Position numbers and translations under genes: made by a program. Below, in pieces: positions 594-45,191 of a stretch of DNA of 64,000 bases. The stretch is from Escherichia coli (GTDB lineage Bacteria; Pseudomonadota; Gammaproteobacteria; Enterobacterales; Enterobacteriaceae). Within the stretch, counting starts at the first letter, position 1. The number at the start of each line of letters is the position of its first letter. Location: assembly GCF_050920415.1 (NCBI RefSeq), contig NZ_CP169309.1. One strand, given 5' to 3'. Below the pieces are notes generated by a model. The model saw nothing but the letters and a program-made list of their open reading frames with translations. It did no database searches and was not told the origin of the DNA.

Positions 594-782
<189 letters not shown>

Positions 783-16307: not shown

Positions 16308-16383
16308 TGGTGGCCCCTGCTGGACTTGAACCAGCGACCAAGCGATTATGAGTCGCCTGCTCTAACCACTGAGCTAAGGGGCC
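16308..16383 (-). tRNA. ileX: tRNA with CAU anticodon (tRNA-Ile2/lysidine type, ileX position)
   Basis: Reverse complement reads GGCCCCTTAGCTCAGTGGTTAGAGCAGGCGACTCATAATCGCTTGGTCGCTGGTTCAAGTCCAGCAGGGGCCACCA: cloverleaf with CAT anticodon and encoded CCA; sits between mug and yqjH as in K-12. Confidence 0.9.
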
Positions 16384-38405: not shown

Positions 38406-38489
38406 CCGGAAAGCGGTTCACAGTTCTCGCGTTGTGCCGGATAGTCCTATTGACGCTGTTGTTTTTTCAACCTAAAGTAAAGGAACAAG

Positions 38490-38630
38490 GGTAAGGGAGG
38501 ATTTCTCCCCCCTCTGAATGGCCGTTAATAAGCGTGGAAACTTATCAGTAACAGCACAATCAGTATGATGACGAACTTCATCATAACCCTTTCCTTATAC
38601 AAGGCCCCTTCTTCGGGAGGGGCTTTCCCG
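38490..38630 (+). ncRNA. Sib-type antisense sRNA (antitoxin) covering the ibs ORF; ends approximate
   Basis: Plus-strand terminator hairpin gcccct-tcttcggg-aggggc then T-rich tract at 38604-38632; fully antisense to the ibs ORF, as in known Sib/Ibs loci between hldE and yqiK. Confidence 0.6.
38525..38584 (-). CDS. Ibs-family type I toxin, 19 aa hydrophobic peptide (MMKFVIILIVLLLISFHAY)
   Basis: Reverse complement atgatgaagttcgtcatcatactgattgtgctgttactgataagtttccacgcttattaa read directly; matches the Ibs toxin pattern; which named ibs paralog is uncertain. Confidence 0.8.
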   Translation of the reverse strand: MMKFVIILIVLLLISFHAY

Positions 38631-38866
38631 TTTCAGCCCCTTGCTGATTCCCCGATTGTTGATGAGCGCCAGACCCCGCGCAATGCTTTCCCTGATGCAC
38701 TTTTCTCTTCCCCGAGTCGGCTCGCAAAACGCTGTAACAACCTGATCATTTGTACTTTTTAGCGGAACGCAGATATAAAAAATCCCCGGCTTTTTGGGCC
38801 AGGGATATGTGTTAATGAAACCTTCTTGACGCTGATTTTTTTTCAACCTAAAGTAAAGGAACAAGG

Positions 38867-39007
38867 GTAAGGGAGGATTTCTCCCCCCTCTGAATTGGTT
38901 GTTAGTAAGTCGGGAAACTTAACAGTAACAACACAATCAGTATGATGACGAACTTCATCATAACCCTTTCCTTATACAAGGCCCCTTCCTCGGGAGGGGC
39001 TTTCCCG
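38867..39007 (+). ncRNA. Sib-type antisense sRNA (second copy); ends approximate
   Basis: Same architecture as copy 1, terminator hairpin at ~38981-39003. Confidence 0.6.
38902..38961 (-). CDS. Ibs-family type I toxin, 19 aa hydrophobic peptide (MMKFVIILIVLLLLSFPTY)
   Basis: Reverse complement atgatgaagttcgtcatcatactgattgtgttgttactgttaagtttcccgacttactaa read directly. Confidence 0.8.
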   Translation of the reverse strand: MMKFVIILIVLLLLSFPTY

Positions 39008-39199: not shown

Positions 39200-40861
39200 T
39201 TATTCTATGTTTTCTGCTACGGGAGTTGTTGAGGTTAAGGGTGAAGTCAATGCCGCTAGCGAGCCGCCTGAAACACCAATTTCATTGAGCAAGGAGTCAA
39301 TCAGCGGTGCCTGTGTGCGGTAAGAAAGCGCGGCTGATAACGCTTGTTCCGCCAGATTTCCTCCACCAACGCTACCTGATATTGCATCCCCTGCGGTACC
39401 ACCACGGTTCAGACCATCGACCTGAATAATCTTAATACCGTCGATAGACTTCATTGGTTCCACAGATTTCTCAATTACCGCAGGGAGCGCCTGCAACAAT
39501 GCCAGCTTGAATTTAAGGCTGGTTTGCTCGTCAGAAAGTACGTTGATAGCATCGTTCAGCGCACGTTGCGCTTCTGCTTCCGCCAGGCCTTTTTTACGCG
39601 TAGCTTCGGCTAACTCAACGATCGCCGCCGCCTGCATCTCTGCGGCTTCTTTCTCTGCTTTCGCCCGCACGGTCAGTTCAACCGCTTTGGTTTCTGCATC
39701 CTGCGCGGCAGCGATTAGGGCAACTTGTTTAGCACGATCGGCTTCTGCGGTCTGGCGAGTGGTTTCTACGTTTTGCTGGGCGCTTACCGCTTCTGCAAGT
39801 GCAAGGTTGGCACGCGCTTCCGTTTGTGACTGCTGTTCCGATTTGGCGGCAATAGCGATCGATTTCGTCTGGTTGGCGATTTCGGTGACCTGCTGCTGTT
39901 CGATCTCTTTAATGCGAACTTCACGTTCAGCTTCAACTTTTCTGGAACGGACGGCCTGTTCGCGGTCGATTTCCGTTTCCTGAATCTGTCGTTCAGCCAG
40001 AATTCGCGTCTGCTCTGCTTCCCGACGACGCTCGGCCTCAAAAGCCGCAATTTTCGCATTCTGCTCAGCGGTACGGGTTTTAACCTGCTGCTCCTGCTCA
40101 AGCGTCATAAACGCTTCTTGCTGTTCAATCTCCAGCTTCCGCGAAAGCGCATCACGGTTTTTCTCACGCACCGCAACTTCTACATCCTGTTCAACTTCGT
40201 TACGTTCGCGACGACGGCGCTCCGTCTCCTGCGTCAGCTTGGTTAAACCTTCGGCGTCAAAGGCGTTGTTAGGATTGAAATGTTCTTTCGACGTCTGGTT
40301 AAAGTTGGTAAGTGAAACGCTTTCCAGTTCCAGGCCGTTTTTCGACAGATCTTCAGCAACGGTATTTTGTACGCCCTGCACGAAGTTCTCGCGGGTATCC
40401 TGTAACTCATGCATGGTCATTTGTGCAGCTGTTGCACGGAGGGCATCGACAAATTTATCTTCAACCAACATACGTAAGTCTTCAGGCGACAGGGTGCGTT
40501 GCCCCAGCGTCTGGGCGGCGGTGGCAATACCTTCCACTGACGGTTTTACCCGCACAAAGAAAGCGACAACGACATCGACGCGCATACGATCTTTCGTAAT
40601 CAGGCTATCAATGGTTGAGCGGCTGACTTCCAGCTTCAGAGTATTCATATTGATGGGGATTATTTCATGAAAGATCGGCATCACGATTGCGCCACCGCTC
40701 ATTACCACTTTTTGCCCACCTAAACCAGTACGAACAAAAGCTTGCTCTGCCGAAGCGCGACGATAGAGCCTGGCGAAAATAATTCCAATAATTAACAGAA
40801 TGCATACGGCAATAATTGCGGTAAACATCCAGGAGGGCACAGAATTAACAATATCATCCAT
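39200..40861 (-). CDS. yqiK: flotillin-like SPFH/band-7 inner membrane protein YqiK
   Basis: 553 aa; N-terminal TM, SPFH domain, long Ala/Glu/Gln-rich coiled-coil. Confidence 0.88.
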   Translation of the reverse strand: MDDIVNSVPSWMFTAIIAVCILLIIGIIFARLYRRASAEQAFVRTGLGGQKVVMSGGAIVMPIFHEIIPINMNTLKLEVSRSTIDSLITKDRMRVDVVVAFFVRVKPSVEGIATAAQTLGQRTLSPEDLRMLVEDKFVDALRATAAQMTMHELQDTRENFVQGVQNTVAEDLSKNGLELESVSLTNFNQTSKEHFNPNNAFDAEGLTKLTQETERRRRERNEVEQDVEVAVREKNRDALSRKLEIEQQEAFMTLEQEQQVKTRTAEQNAKIAAFEAERRREAEQTRILAERQIQETEIDREQAVRSRKVEAEREVRIKEIEQQQVTEIANQTKSIAIAAKSEQQSQTEARANLALAEAVSAQQNVETTRQTAEADRAKQVALIAAAQDAETKAVELTVRAKAEKEAAEMQAAAIVELAEATRKKGLAEAEAQRALNDAINVLSDEQTSLKFKLALLQALPAVIEKSVEPMKSIDGIKIIQVDGLNRGGTAGDAISGSVGGGNLAEQALSAALSYRTQAPLIDSLLNEIGVSGGSLAALTSPLTSTTPVAENIE

Positions 40862-40887
40862 TATTAAATTTCCTTTTGATTAATAAA

Positions 40888-41517
40888 TTACAGTATTTGG
40901 GGCCAGGGATTTTTTTCCGCCAAATATCGCGTTGCAGAAAGTCGGCAAATAATTAATACTTTGTCTCCTTTAGTGAAAGTTTTTTCTTCTTCAGGTTCCA
41001 GTAGTAAATAATGTATTTGGCCAAATTGATCGGTGAGTTTTCCTTCACAGGGGTTACCTGAAGTGGCCTGATGTCCGGTAATTAATGCCATGCAGCCAAT
41101 ATAATCGTCTTCTGTAATAGCAGTGCTATGATCTCGTGGTAACCAGGGCGCAATTCCTTTACCGGTATAATGCACTGCAATAATCGTTAGCAGTAAACTG
41201 ACAGGAACCACAAACAGATTTGTGAGTGGTGATTGCCAGACCATGATGCAGACCTGCTGTAGCAGGATGCCAATAAGGCCAAAAAAACCAGCATGTAAGC
41301 AGAGAACGACGAGAGCTGGCAATCTTCCAAAATTGAGATAATGAAGTGCCTGGCTAATATGACCTGTGGTTATGGAATCATAATGGTCAAGATGTGCATC
41401 AAGAGCACCGGAAAGCATGTGACCGCAGATAAGTGCAAAAATTTCTAAAAGGCCGATCAAAAGTACAAAAGAAATAGCGAAAAGATAAGGGGTGTTATAG
41501 TCAGCGAATAAACTCAT
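40888..41517 (-). CDS. yqiJ: inner membrane protein YqiJ (NfeD-like partner of YqiK)
   Basis: 209 aa multi-TM protein immediately upstream of yqiK in the same orientation. Confidence 0.85.
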
Positions 41518-41786
41518 ATGTCACTCCAATGTCCATTTAGTGACGCAATATTTATTTTGCGATAATTTCCTTGCTTACATTTATCTTTGTTAATAATAAC
41601 ACATGTTAGAGATGTTCTGAAAGAGAAAGTCTTTTAATGTTGTTTTTTTATTTTTCACTAAAAAGTGTGATCGGGAACAATATATTTACGCACGTTATGT
41701 TTAAAGGCACTACACTGATTGGGGAATACTGAAATCAGAAAAAGCATATGGCCTTAAAAGGTATGCGATAACCGGAGGAGGTGCTT

Positions 41787-41987
41787 ATGGATCATAGTCT
41801 TAATTCTTTAAATAATTTCGATTTCCTGGCGCGTAGTTTTGCCAGAATGCACGCAGAAGGTCGCCCGGTCGATATTCTGGCCGTTACTGGTAACATGGAT
41901 GAAGAACATAGAACCTGGTTTTGCGCACGTTATGCCTGGTATTGCCAACAAATGATGCAAACCAGAGAACTGGAATTAGAACATTGA
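41787..41987 (+). CDS. glgS: surface-composition / glycogen-synthesis regulator GlgS
   Basis: [57 protein letters not shown]...; SD ggagga 7 nt upstream of this ATG. Confidence 0.92.
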
Positions 41988-41991
41988 TATT

Positions 41992-42015
41992 ACGGGCCGT
42001 CTGGCCCGTTTTTGT
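41992..42015 (+). terminator. rho-independent terminator after glgS
   Basis: acgggccgtctggcccgttttt. Confidence 0.7.
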
Positions 42016-42021
42016 GGTGCT

Positions 42022-42321
42022 TTATTCTGCTTTATCAACCGGCGGGATAGCCGGAGGAGATTGAAGATCTGCTACCGAATTATTGCGCGCTTCCAGTTCA
42101 CTGATGCGCTGCTCCAGTAATGCCAGTTTCTCACGAGTCCGTAACAGGACTTGCGTCTGTACGTCGAATTCTTCGCGGCTCACCAGATCGAGACGCGTCA
42201 ACTGCGCTTGTAGGGTTTGGCGGATTTTTTTCTCCACATCTTCCCCGAACTCCCTGATTCCTTTAGGCATTGATTCGTGAACCTGGCGAGCGATTTGCTC
42301 AATTTTTTTCGGGTCAATCAT
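42022..42321 (-). CDS. ubiK: ubiquinone biosynthesis accessory factor UbiK (YqiC, BMFP family)
   Basis: Start taken at [21 protein letters not shown] (ATG 42319-42321); ORF track extends 20 codons further upstream. Confidence 0.85.
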
Positions 42322-42443
42322 TGTAGTTTCCCTGTACTGATAGGTGTTGAGTGCCATTGTAGTGCGATAAGGGTAAGTCATAAACCAGAATTATGTGAAG
42401 CTATGCGTTGCTGCCGCTAATCATTAGCGTTATAGTGAATCCG

Positions 42444-42690
42444 CTTATTCTCAGGGCGGGGCGAAATTCCCCACCGGCGGTAAATCAACTCAGTTGAAAG
42501 CCCGCGAGCGCTTTGGGTGCGAACTCAAAGGACAGCAGATCCGGTGTAATTCCGGGGCCGACGGTTAGAGTCCGGATGGGAGAGAGTAACGATTCTGTCG
42601 GGCATGGACCCGCTCACGTTATTTTGGCTATATGCCGCCACTCCTAAGACTGCCCTGATTCTGGTAACCATAATTTTAGTGAGGTTTTTT
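42444..42690 (+). ncRNA. FMN riboswitch (RFN element) in the ribB leader; aptamer ~42444-42595 plus expression platform
   Basis: Conserved RFN segments agggcggggcgaaattccccaccggcggtaaa, cccgcgagcgctttgggtg, aggacagcagatccggtgtaattccggggccgacggttagagtccggatgggagagagtaacg seen directly. Confidence 0.85.
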
Positions 42691-42694
42691 TACC

Positions 42695-43348
42695 ATGAAT
42701 CAGACGCTACTTTCCTCTTTTGGTACGCCTTTCGAACGTGTTGAAAATGCACTGGCAGCGCTGCGTGAAGGACGCGGTGTAATGGTGCTTGATGATGAAG
42801 ACCGTGAAAACGAAGGCGATATGATCTTCCCGGCAGAAACCATGACCGTTGAGCAGATGGCACTGACCATTCGCCACGGTAGCGGTATTGTTTGCCTGTG
42901 CATCACTGAAGATCGCCGTAAACAGCTCGATCTGCCAATGATGGTAGAAAAAAACACCAGCGCCTATGGCACCGGTTTTACCGTGACCATTGAAGCGGCT
43001 GAAGGGGTGACTACCGGTGTTTCTGCCGCTGACCGTATTACGACCGTTCGTGCTGCGATTGCTGATGGTGCTAAACCTTCAGACTTGAATCGTCCTGGCC
43101 ACGTATTCCCACTGCGCGCGCAGGCGGGTGGTGTGCTGACGCGTGGCGGCCATACCGAAGCGACTATTGATCTGATGACGCTGGCAGGCTTTAAACCAGC
43201 TGGTGTGTTGTGTGAGCTGACTAATGACGATGGCACGATGGCGCGTGCACCAGAGTGCATTGAGTTTGCCAATAAACACAATATGGCGCTCGTGACTATT
43301 GAAGACCTGGTGGCATACCGTCAGGCACATGAGCGTAAAGCTAGTTAA
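42695..43348 (+). CDS. ribB: 3,4-dihydroxy-2-butanone 4-phosphate synthase RibB
   Basis: 217 aa [45 protein letters not shown]... Confidence 0.95.
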
Positions 43349-43370
43349 TAACTCAAAATATTGAAGATGA

Positions 43371-43401
43371 AAACGCCGGGATATTCCCGGCGTTTTTATG
43401 G
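43371..43401. terminator. bidirectional terminator shared by convergent ribB and yqiI
   Basis: aaaacgccgggatattcccggcgtttt perfect hairpin with A/T flanks. Confidence 0.75.
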
Positions 43402-44445
43402 CTAGTTGTAGTTGATTTTAACAATCAGGTCCTTTTGAAATGGGCCATAAACCAGTGTTGCACCTGGTTCTGTCGTTAGCTTCGCCTGGTAACTTCGTGT
43501 TATTACTGCTGGGGTTTCATTAGGTTTATAAGTAGTAAATAATTTATACTGATTAAATTTCATATCTGTCTTATCAACTTGATCTGTAATGTGCATTATA
43601 AGACCGTTTCCCATTTCTAAGTGTGTATTATCATATAATGTATCATCAGTGTAGAAACTGGTTGCGACATCAAATTGTTCGCTACAATTAGCAGTAGCAT
43701 CCCGAATTGTTGAAACATCAAATGTAGCTGTTGGTGGTATAGTCACGATTGTACTCGGGTCAATACGTCCGAAATTAACGATTTGACTTTCAGGGAAAAT
43801 GCGAATGTCTATGCTACAATCAAGAAAAGAAATATTGTCGAGTCCAGTAATATTAGCGTGTAAATTTTTGGCTCTATTATCGGTGTTTGCTCCTTGTGAA
43901 CCATCGAATTGCAATATATTGACCGTACTGAAGTCAATTTTCGTGTCCTTTGGGGGGTGTTGTTTAAGTTTTACATACAAGCGAAATCGAGCATTGAAGG
44001 TGACCTCTGTTTGGAGGACACCAGTATTAGTGCATGTGTCAGTCACAATCTGAAATGGGTTTGCTCTATCCAGACAATATCCTGTATCAATGCCCTGATT
44101 GTTTCCTTCGTAATCCTGTCCATTATAAGTTACACCAAATGTTAAGTATGGGTTGTTTATCACAGAGGGATCATTGAACTCTGCTATTTTTATCCAGGCA
44201 TGAACATTTTCATATGGATTGCTTTCTGACCAATTGACGGCCCTGTTGCAAAAAACTTTTGTATTAATATCATCGCTTTCCCAAATTTTCTGACCAATCT
44301 CAGCATCCTGTGGTACTTTGAACGCAGGCATAGGTTTATTTATTTCTGTATTACCAAAACGTTTATTCTGATAGCAATCGACTGCATAAGAAGAAACATT
44401 AACAAACAAGCACAATATTGCCAGGAGACGAAAAAGCATGATCAT
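43402..44445 (-). CDS. yqiI: fimbrial adhesin-like protein YqiI
   Basis: 347 aa with signal peptide; last gene of the chaperone-usher operon. Confidence 0.8.
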   Translation of the reverse strand: MIMLFRLLAILCLFVNVSSYAVDCYQNKRFGNTEINKPMPAFKVPQDAEIGQKIWESDDINTKVFCNRAVNWSESNPYENVHAWIKIAEFNDPSVINNPYLTFGVTYNGQDYEGNNQGIDTGYCLDRANPFQIVTDTCTNTGVLQTEVTFNARFRLYVKLKQHPPKDTKIDFSTVNILQFDGSQGANTDNRAKNLHANITGLDNISFLDCSIDIRIFPESQIVNFGRIDPSTIVTIPPTATFDVSTIRDATANCSEQFDVATSFYTDDTLYDNTHLEMGNGLIMHITDQVDKTDMKFNQYKLFTTYKPNETPAVITRSYQAKLTTEPGATLVYGPFQKDLIVKINYN

Positions 44446-45191
44446 AATTTTCCCTTCTTCGCAGGTGTAGCTTGGCAGAGTGACTGAACGGAATTACAGT
44501 CAATTTTGAACATTTCCAGCCCACCGTAATCACCAACAAAACCCAGTAGGAAGGTCGTCGGAAGGTTTTTAATTTGCTGAGTTGCAGTCCCAAAAGGGGT
44601 AACCATAATGCTGTCTGTTCCGGGCATTAATGTCTTGCCGTTAGTTCCGATATAACCGACGGTAATGTGATAAGGCGTCGGGTTATTCAGGGTCAACCCG
44701 GCGGCGCTGTGGGTAATCGTCAATTTTTGCAGGGGTACCATCTCTCCCTCTTTTAATTCAATCGATTTGGGTCGCCAGAACAGTTTCAGACGACTTTGCA
44801 TGGCGATTTGCATTACATTCTGTTCTTTGGCGCGCGGCGGAATTTCCCGCACGTTATAGTAAAACAGCGTTTCTCTGTCCTGTGGCAAGTTGTTTAATGC
44901 GGACAGCGCCATCAGGCGAATTTGCACTTGCTCATTGGCCTCGATACGTTCCATTGGGGGGAGCGTTGATATGTAATCGCGCGTTTTTTTACCGCTGGCG
45001 TCCTCAATCCACGATTGAGCTAAATAAGGATCGATTTTACTTTGGTTGGTCAGGCGAACAGTTGCGCTTTTATTTGAAGCATTAAAAATTATGCGCGTTC
45101 TGTCGGGGGAGACAGTCGCTTGGGCGAAGTTACAGAACCCCAGTAAACAAATCATTCCTGTTACGGTTAATAGCGATTTCATTTTTTTCAT
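44442..45191 (-). CDS. yqiH: periplasmic fimbrial chaperone YqiH (PapD-like)
   Basis: 249 aa with signal peptide, PapD-like pilus chaperone pattern; overlaps yqiI start. Confidence 0.85.
   Translation of the reverse strand: MKKMKSLLTVTGMICLLGFCNFAQATVSPDRTRIIFNASNKSATVRLTNQSKIDPYLAQSWIEDASGKKTRDYISTLPPMERIEANEQVQIRLMALSALNNLPQDRETLFYYNVREIPPRAKEQNVMQIAMQSRLKLFWRPKSIELKEGEMVPLQKLTITHSAAGLTLNNPTPYHITVGYIGTNGKTLMPGTDSIMVTPFGTATQQIKNLPTTFLLGFVGDYGGLEMFKIDCNSVQSLCQATPAKKGKL

Follow-up and report, generated by a model that had tools for sequence, protein, structure and literature searches.

An FMN riboswitch in the 5′ untranslated region of Escherichia coli ribB, with conserved complementarities predicted to compete with one another

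Locus organization, promoter, and transcript numbering

The window analyzed in this study is the whole stretch of 64,000 nucleotides from Escherichia coli contig NZ_CP169309.1. It contains ribB, the regulated gene (42695 to 43348, + strand, identified as an open reading frame and in RefSeq), which encodes 3,4-dihydroxy-2-butanone-4-phosphate synthase (217 aa) with one amino acid difference from RibB of strain K-12. The divergent gene ubiK has its annotated start at 42321 (− strand). The original prediction had described a leader of ~310 bp between divergent ubiK and ribB; the divergent arrangement was correct and the length was inexact, with no bearing on the reading, the intergenic region being 373 bp (42322 to 42694) and the ribB 5′ untranslated region (5′UTR) being 252 nt (42443 to 42694) if transcription starts at 42443. 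This +1 position (a G on the + strand, equivalent to MG1655 position 3,184,718) follows the numbering of the literature and is also where the Rfam match described below begins, and it was the sole offset that fitted the published landmarks C175/G176, U181, and the anti*-P1 pairing of 141-149 with 175-183. With this numbering, C175/G176 correspond to 42617/42618, U181 to 42623, and the AUG begins at +253. The transcription start site of sroG/ribB has been mapped experimentally (PMC2760140).

Sequence and conservation pointed to a putative promoter for ribB/sroG on the + strand, composed of a −35 element TTGCTG (42408 to 42413), a 17-bp spacer, and a −10 element TATAGT (42431 to 42436) that ends 7 nt upstream of +1. 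Among the 34 Enterobacterales leaders with upstream sequence, TATAGT was near-invariant and in register, and TTGNNG kept a fixed spacing to the start of the aptamer in almost all. The leader region gave no call with a consensus promoter scanner, the −35 element matching the consensus at 3 of 6 bases only.

At the other end of the gene, folding revealed an intrinsic terminator hairpin 3′ of ribB, AAAACGCCGGGA-UAU-UCCCGGCGUUUU (43367 to 43399, + strand), with a free energy of −24.6 kcal/mol (z = −5.5; none of 200 shuffles reached this stability). The hairpin is symmetric, is flanked by an A-run and a U-run, and is located between the convergent ribB (+) and a fimbrial gene (−), and its symmetry suggests that the terminator is bidirectional. 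A pattern scanner failed to call it, the probable cause being that the A/U runs lengthen the stem.

Identity of the element

A cmscan search of 40000 to 45000 that covered every Rfam family under a permissive threshold gave one strong match, to the FMN family (RF00050) at 42443 to 42591 on the + strand, scoring 120.9 bits (gathering score, 66.2; E value, 8.6e-29); the alignment spanned model positions 1 to 138 of 138 and was untruncated. The same match was recovered when the whole 64-kb window was rescanned at the gathering threshold. The RFN-element blocks that had been read directly upstream of ribB are thus part of a full-length RF00050 match on that strand, and the covariance model scan that had been proposed as a check returned nearly twice the threshold rather than a score below it. 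The span originally assigned to the riboswitch (42444 to 42690) takes in the aptamer (42443 to 42591) and nearly all of the expression platform (42592 to 42694). A second alignment from the permissive scan, to AdoCbl-II (RF01689) at 42521 to 42589 (+), was nested within the FMN aptamer, contained many noncanonical pairs, and reached 22.3 bits (E value of 0.11) against a gathering score of 36.5, and it was discarded as spurious.

The ubiK-ribB intergenic region is identical to that of E. coli K-12 MG1655 at 373 of 373 bases. Over 42300 to 42720, 100% identity to E. coli chromosomes was found, with at least 99% identity in 5,425 of 5,426 complete E. coli genomes, and the RefSeq features under these matches are ubiK, "riboswitch," and ribB. 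In one matching RefSeq record, a riboswitch feature with the note "FMN riboswitch" covers exactly 42443 to 42591, the ends of which correspond to MG1655 positions 3,184,718 and 3,184,570. The region 42443 to 42591 therefore belongs fully to the FMN riboswitch family and is none other than the E. coli K-12 ribB element, so the reading as an FMN riboswitch is supported both by identity to the characterized K-12 element and by the RefSeq annotation. It is located in the 5′UTR of a riboflavin gene on the same strand and ends 103 nt before the ribB ATG. The element is already known, and virtually all E. coli genomes carry its annotation. The ribB FMN riboswitch was among the founding examples of riboswitches and is an antibiotic target (ribocil and roseoflavin), and FMN-riboswitch biology in E. 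coli was worked out on this very locus. Since the copy studied here is base-for-base that of K-12, the published biochemistry carries over to this window.

Structure and covariation of the FMN aptamer

The aptamer (RFN element; 42443 to 42591, + strand) is a six-helix junction composed of P1 to P6, as defined by RF00050, the RefSeq feature, and covariation. In the cmscan structure, the P1 5′ strand UUAUUCUC (+3 to +10; 42445 to 42452, +) pairs with the P1 3′ strand GAGAGUAA (+140 to +147; 42582 to 42589, +), which was also supported by folding and covariation and which partly coincides with the 5′ strand of anti*-P1 (+141 to +149). When the aptamer was folded alone, P1 (3-10/140-147) and the internal helices were obtained.

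For comparative analysis, contigs from one genome per species were scanned with a pattern consisting of the aptamer 3′ block, a gap of 192 to 222 nt, and a RibB motif. At least 120 loci with aptamer-ribB linkage were found in other species, this linkage being built into the search pattern. The matches listed included loci from Enterobacterales, Vibrio, Aeromonas, Shewanella, Pasteurellaceae, and Moritella, as well as from Sutterella, Desulfobacterota, Rhizobiaceae, Clostridium, and others, and an ATG was present 32 to 33 codons upstream of the RibB motif in almost all of them. From the matches listed, 107 distinct aptamers were aligned with MAFFT and scored on the Rfam structure. Because the selection pattern had fixed only part of the P6/J6-1 block, the aptamer stems provided an independent test. 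Results revealed that 93.7% of the aptamer cells were paired across these 107 aptamers among the matches listed, compared with 39% to 58% when the partners were slid, and that 12 of the 28 aptamer pairs had changed on both sides; none of 500 shuffles reached the observed values. Thus, the six-helix junction shows compensatory changes among ribB-linked aptamers of many species. Five pairs with both-side changes across species were in P1, and other examples, likewise among the matches listed, were C-G to U-A replacements in P3 (18 sequences) and P5 (46 sequences) and a G-C to A-U replacement in P6 (16 sequences). The junction blocks were invariant in the same 107 aptamers.

In some ribB aptamers, the P3 loop was enlarged by insertions of ~50 to 120 nt, as observed in Salmonella enterica subsp. 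arizonae (L099:8428-8628) and Kluyvera (L057:9782-9987 and L087:8154-8559). The two with shorter inserts still passed the Rfam threshold (108 and 106 bits). The aptamer of Kluyvera genomosp. 3, with an insert of ~120 nt, was absent at the gathering threshold, and its core blocks aligned perfectly.

Parts and predicted folding of the expression platform

All platform elements described here are on the + strand. Between the aptamer and the first pause, a CGGG/CCCG hairpin (+157 to +160/+167 to +170; 42599 to 42612) was present in every predicted fold and is supported by covariation. The following segment, CGUUAUUUU (+175 to +183; 42617 to 42625), which includes the pause positions C175 (42617) and U181 (42623), is the published 3′ strand of anti*-P1; it is a perfect 9-bp complement of AGAGUAACG (+141 to +149), and the helix was present in the unconstrained minimum free energy (MFE) fold. 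Further downstream, CUCCUA (+199 to +204; 42641 to 42646), marked by the MFE fold and by conservation, is the complement of the aptamer sequence UGGGAG (+135 to +140), and the UGGGAG/CUCCUA helix stacks beneath anti*-P1 in the predicted ligand-free fold. Complementarity and conservation also pointed to an anti-aptamer (anti-P1) strand, CUGCCCUGA (+208 to +216; 42650 to 42658), which can pair with UCAGGGCGG (+9 to +17), a segment that comprises the end of P1, J1/2, and the start of P2. We infer that this 9-17/208-216 helix is the published "anti-P1," its coordinates having been derived in the present analysis.

The remaining elements surround the translation start. Folding and conservation indicated a sequester 5′ arm, CUGAUUCUGGUAA (+213 to +225; 42655 to 42667), which has its first 4 nt in common with the anti-aptamer strand (+208 to +216), and a sequester 3′ arm, UUACCAUGAAUCAG (+248 to +261; 42690 to 42703), which runs from the final 5 nt of the leader through the AUG to ribB codons 2 and 3. 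The Shine-Dalgarno sequence GAGG (+239 to +242; 42681 to 42684), recognized from sequence and folds, is located 10 nt upstream of the AUG and inside an inner hairpin formed by AAUUUU and GAGGUU (+230 to +235/+239 to +244). The second pause region (+247 to +249; 42689 to 42691), mapped here from the literature, is the 3′ border of the FMN-sensing window (PMC11571811).

The unconstrained MFE fold of +1 to +282 was ON-like and consisted of anti*-P1, the 135-140/199-204 helix, and a hairpin at 213-261, formed by pairing of CUGAUUCUGGUAA with UUACCAUGAAUCAG, with the AAUUUU/GAGGUU inner stem covering GAGG. The stability of the whole leader was no greater than that of its shuffles (z = −0.63). When P1, anti-P1, or anti*-P1 was forced, the predicted energies were within ~8 kcal/mol of each other and most of the sequester was retained, so that in these models thermodynamic folding alone does not separate the ON and OFF states. 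That the switch is not seen in thermodynamics fits the published view of a cotranscriptional decision. Mutually exclusive platform structures are instead indicated by the conserved competing complementarities, as detailed below.

Conservation of the platform

Thirty-seven whole Enterobacterales leaders among the matches listed were aligned. The blocks CUCCUAAG...GCCCUGAUUCUGGUAA and UUACCAUGAAUCAG were essentially invariant in these 37 leaders, the synonymous sites of ribB codons 2 and 3 included, and CUCCUAAG itself (+199 to +206) was nearly invariant; the segment from +150 to +198 was variable and contained indels. In the Enterobacterales leaders, the OFF-state helices were 96% paired, with the sequester paired at 100% (12 of its 13 pairs being invariant) and the inner Shine-Dalgarno hairpin (+230 to +235/+239 to +244) at 83.6%. 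Regarding the alternative pairings in the same leaders, paired cells accounted for 99.1% in anti-P1 (9-17/208-216), 98.6% in the 135-140/199-204 helix, and 87.3% in anti*-P1 (141-149/175-183), the variation in these three helices being one-sided only. The ON-state helices showed five pairs with both-side changes in Enterobacterales, a number matched by 177 of 500 shuffles. Since the switching helices are almost invariant in Enterobacterales, their support comes from conservation and not from covariation. The +157-160/+167-170 hairpin was paired at 94.6% in Enterobacterales, with three of its four pairs changed on both sides. The covariation of this hairpin and the invariance of the CUCCUAAG block suggest that, in the ligand-free state, a "clamp" on both aptamer ends may extend beyond the pair of anti-stems described in the literature consulted.

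The same wiring was recognizable beyond Enterobacterales. The motif CCCTGA, which is the complement of the invariant UCAGGG of the aptamer, was located 26 to 53 nt upstream of the ATG in 86 of 103 ribB leaders among the matches listed, with a chance expectation of ~0.02 per leader. Similarly, the sequester design CCCUGAUUCUGGUA...UACC-AUGAAUCAG recurred from gammaproteobacteria to Desulfobacterota in leaders among the matches listed. Blocks anchored on CCCUG(A/G) and the ATG in 97 leaders among the matches listed yielded 65 distinct sequences from several phyla, in which the pairs 213-219/255-261 (CUGAUUC/GAAUCAG) were formed at 95% to 98%. U218-A256 was replaced by G-C in 4 of these 65 distinct leaders, including those of Sutterella with CUGAUGCA and AUGCAUCAG; since the G218/C256 change converts Asn2 to His, a coding base here follows its RNA partner. 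Moreover, the A216-to-G change, found in 10 of the 65, keeps a wobble pair with U258, and the third base of codon 2 was U, the pair-preserving base, in 63 of the 65. AUG-AAU-CAG (ribB codons 1 to 3; 42695 to 42703) was kept at the nucleotide level across phyla, synonymous sites included, in the 97 leaders among the matches listed. The N terminus of RibB therefore appears to be constrained by RNA structure. Judged from the alignments, the UCAGGG of the aptamer and the ribB start region are predicted competitors for CUGA(UUC), and this competition is conserved. A crude duplex-energy test of anti*-P1 in the broad species set gave no signal (−9.39 kcal/mol versus −9.47 kcal/mol for shuffled partners), and the support for this helix thus comes from the pairing in E. 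coli and other Enterobacterales and from published RNase H data. The comparative picture of the switch wiring extends existing models and overturns none.

In a ribB leader from a Verrucomicrobiia MAG (L110), CCCUGA served as the 5′ arm of a hairpin resembling a terminator, CCCUGAAGAAC-CG-UUCUUCAGGG, followed by CUUUUG, so that a transcription-terminator platform would be built there from the block that makes the translational sequester in E. coli.

Mechanism and alternative explanations

The present analysis shows the aptamer and its covariation, along with the conserved competing complementarities; FMN binding, pausing, Rho dependence, and in vivo repression rest on published experiments with the identical sequence. 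In the E. coli ribB riboswitch, RNA polymerase pauses at C175/G176 and U181 and again at 247-249 near the AUG, an anti*-P1 helix forms between 141-149 and 175-183, and FMN, bound with nanomolar affinities, confers protection on P1 and on the sequester stem of the nascent RNA, including the site of the 218-227 probe; the FMN-sensing window closes at the +247 pause (Eschbach et al. 2024, PMC11571811). Control of ribB by Rho was observed by chromatin immunoprecipitation (ChIP), with a Rho termination score of 3.1, and was lost in the rho R66S mutant (PMC5499598). In single-molecule experiments with purified components and ribocil-C, ligand binding opened a rut site for Rho (PMC10085680). Deletion of the element derepressed ribB and riboflavin production (PMC9885008). 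In addition, the pattern scanner detected no intrinsic terminator in the leader, consistent with Rho dependence.

We consider it highly probable (about 97%) that 42443 to 42694 is the ribB 5′UTR carrying an FMN riboswitch that works by the following mechanism, which explains the observations best. Transcription would start at ~42443 from a sigma-70-type promoter (−10 TATAGT), and the first 149 nt would adopt the six-helix structure of the FMN aptamer. With little FMN available (ON), P1 would stay open, and its 3′ strand would pair with +175 to +183 to form anti*-P1; UGGGAG would pair with CUCCUA (+199 to +204), and UCAGGGCGG of the aptamer with CUGCCCUGA (+208 to +216). By tying up part of the sequester 5′ arm, anti-P1 would allow ribosomes to load at GAGG/AUG and RNA polymerase to read through. 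When FMN is abundant (OFF), it would bind the nascent aptamer in the window between the pauses at +175/181 and +247-249, and with P1 closed the anti-stems would be unable to form. The sequester 5′ arm (+213 to +225) would then pair with the 3′ arm (+248 to +261), burying the AUG and codons 2 and 3, and the inner hairpin would cover the Shine-Dalgarno sequence, while an exposed rut sequence would lead to Rho termination within the leader. Translation and the ribB mRNA level would both drop, with less riboflavin synthesis as the result, and the short leader RNA that accumulates would be the known small RNA (sRNA) SroG.

One alternative is that control is exerted on translation only, Rho termination being an indirect consequence of the exposure of untranslated ribB message and the riboswitch itself gating no rut site. 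Such an indirect mechanism has been shown for E. coli thiM and proposed to be general for translational riboswitches (PMC5499598), and the strongest conserved platform feature in our data is the Shine-Dalgarno/AUG sequester, with no identifiable rut element. In Fig. 7A of the same work, however, ribB is assigned to the direct mechanism, with reference to FMN-dependent termination by Rho within the leader (PMC5499598), and in ribosome-free single-molecule assays with purified components, Rho termination on the ribB leader was still ligand dependent (PMC10085680). Thus, we regard purely translational control as improbable.

The leader-derived sRNA that the original prediction had suggested does exist and is known as SroG. 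The coordinates 42443 to 42591 (MG1655 3,184,718 to 3,184,570) are those given for sroG in databases. SroG is a recognized sRNA from the ribB leader (PMC7456131; PMC2760140), it has been stated that "sroG is actually a riboswitch" (PMC6242692), and in gel shifts it bound cdsA, cysJ, yfbR, yncD, mepM, potA, pgl, and fecE mRNA fragments in vitro (PMC6172242). These reports could be taken to mean that the main product of the locus is SroG, a trans-acting aptamer RNA of roughly 150 nt, and that cis control of ribB is one role among others. We consider this unlikely, given that the evidence for targets is in vitro only, that premature termination would be expected to leave a short leader RNA as a by-product, and that conservation is of the cis type: the aptamer is always linked to ribB (a linkage for which the search pattern selected), and the platform is complementary to the ribB start. 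That SroG has a second, trans-acting role in addition to cis control, by base pairing with other mRNAs or as a flavin-loaded regulator, is likewise rather doubtful; if true, this would make the locus a riboregulator with dual cis/trans action.

A leader peptide mediating attenuation, alone or alongside the riboswitch, is very improbable. Mechanically called open reading frames do overlap the ribB leader, for example, one of 46 aa at 42604 to 42744, but in Enterobacterales the indels between +150 and +200 are not multiples of three and there is no codon-like conservation; the conserved blocks are RNA-pairing segments, and no peptide is annotated in RefSeq. The leader-peptide candidates were therefore rejected for their out-of-frame indels and want of coding-type conservation. 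Finally, the idea that the match arose by chance or has decayed and plays no regulatory part, for which no supporting point was found, can practically be set aside in view of the E value of 8.6e-29 at full model coverage, the covariation over 107 aptamers among the matches listed, the near-total conservation in 5,425 E. coli genomes, and the derepression of ribB upon deletion (PMC9885008).

Comparison with known systems

The FMN riboswitch described here and the ribB riboswitch (sroG) of E. coli K-12 are the same element, with the same aptamer coordinates, downstream gene, and landmarks and a regulatory region without differences; the two loci differ in that a fimbrial operon takes the place of yqiD-zupT 3′ of ribB and in the one changed RibB residue. 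Bacillus subtilis ribD (ribDG) carries an aptamer of the same family, in which FMN likewise closes P1 and turns expression off (PMC11571811), whereas its platform is an intrinsic terminator/antiterminator and that of E. coli ribB combines a Shine-Dalgarno/AUG sequester with Rho-dependent termination. The thiamine pyrophosphate (TPP) riboswitches of E. coli thiM and thiC are similarly translational and Rho coupled, with cotranscriptional sensing windows delimited by pauses close to the start codon and with sequestering structures that extend into the first codons, as in ribB. They have another aptamer and ligand, and the Rho effect in thiM is indirect, via lost translation, whereas that in ribB is described as direct (PMC5499598). 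The Salmonella mgtA leader is the other classic example of a rut site gated for Rho by leader conformation, but it senses Mg2+, has no metabolite aptamer ligand, and is unrelated to ribB in sequence and structure.

Other features of the window

A chaperone-usher fimbrial operon is located directly 3′ of ribB (43402 to 47340 and beyond, − strand), at the position where O157:H7 and K-12 carry yqiD-zupT, and glgS abuts ubiK, the K-12 ygiL-yqiGHI cluster between them being absent. This version of the fimbrial operon is rare: at least 99% identity over the full 4 kb was found in 2 of 5,426 complete E. coli genomes (MFDS1022581 and N96), three more genomes had at least 80% coverage at 86% to 90% identity, and ~990 matched at only 80% to 90% identity. 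Two tandem SIB RNA genes (RF00113) are located just upstream of yqiK at 38450 to 38599 and 38826 to 38976 (+ strand; 149.4 and 143.7 bits); presumably these are sibD and sibE, the antitoxin genes for the ibs type I toxins, and their presence at this locus is as expected for E. coli. The window also contains a tRNA gene at 16311 to 16383 (− strand; 73.1 bits) and a naRNA4/CssrE match at 647 to 728 (+ strand) with 60.4 bits against a threshold of 59.5.
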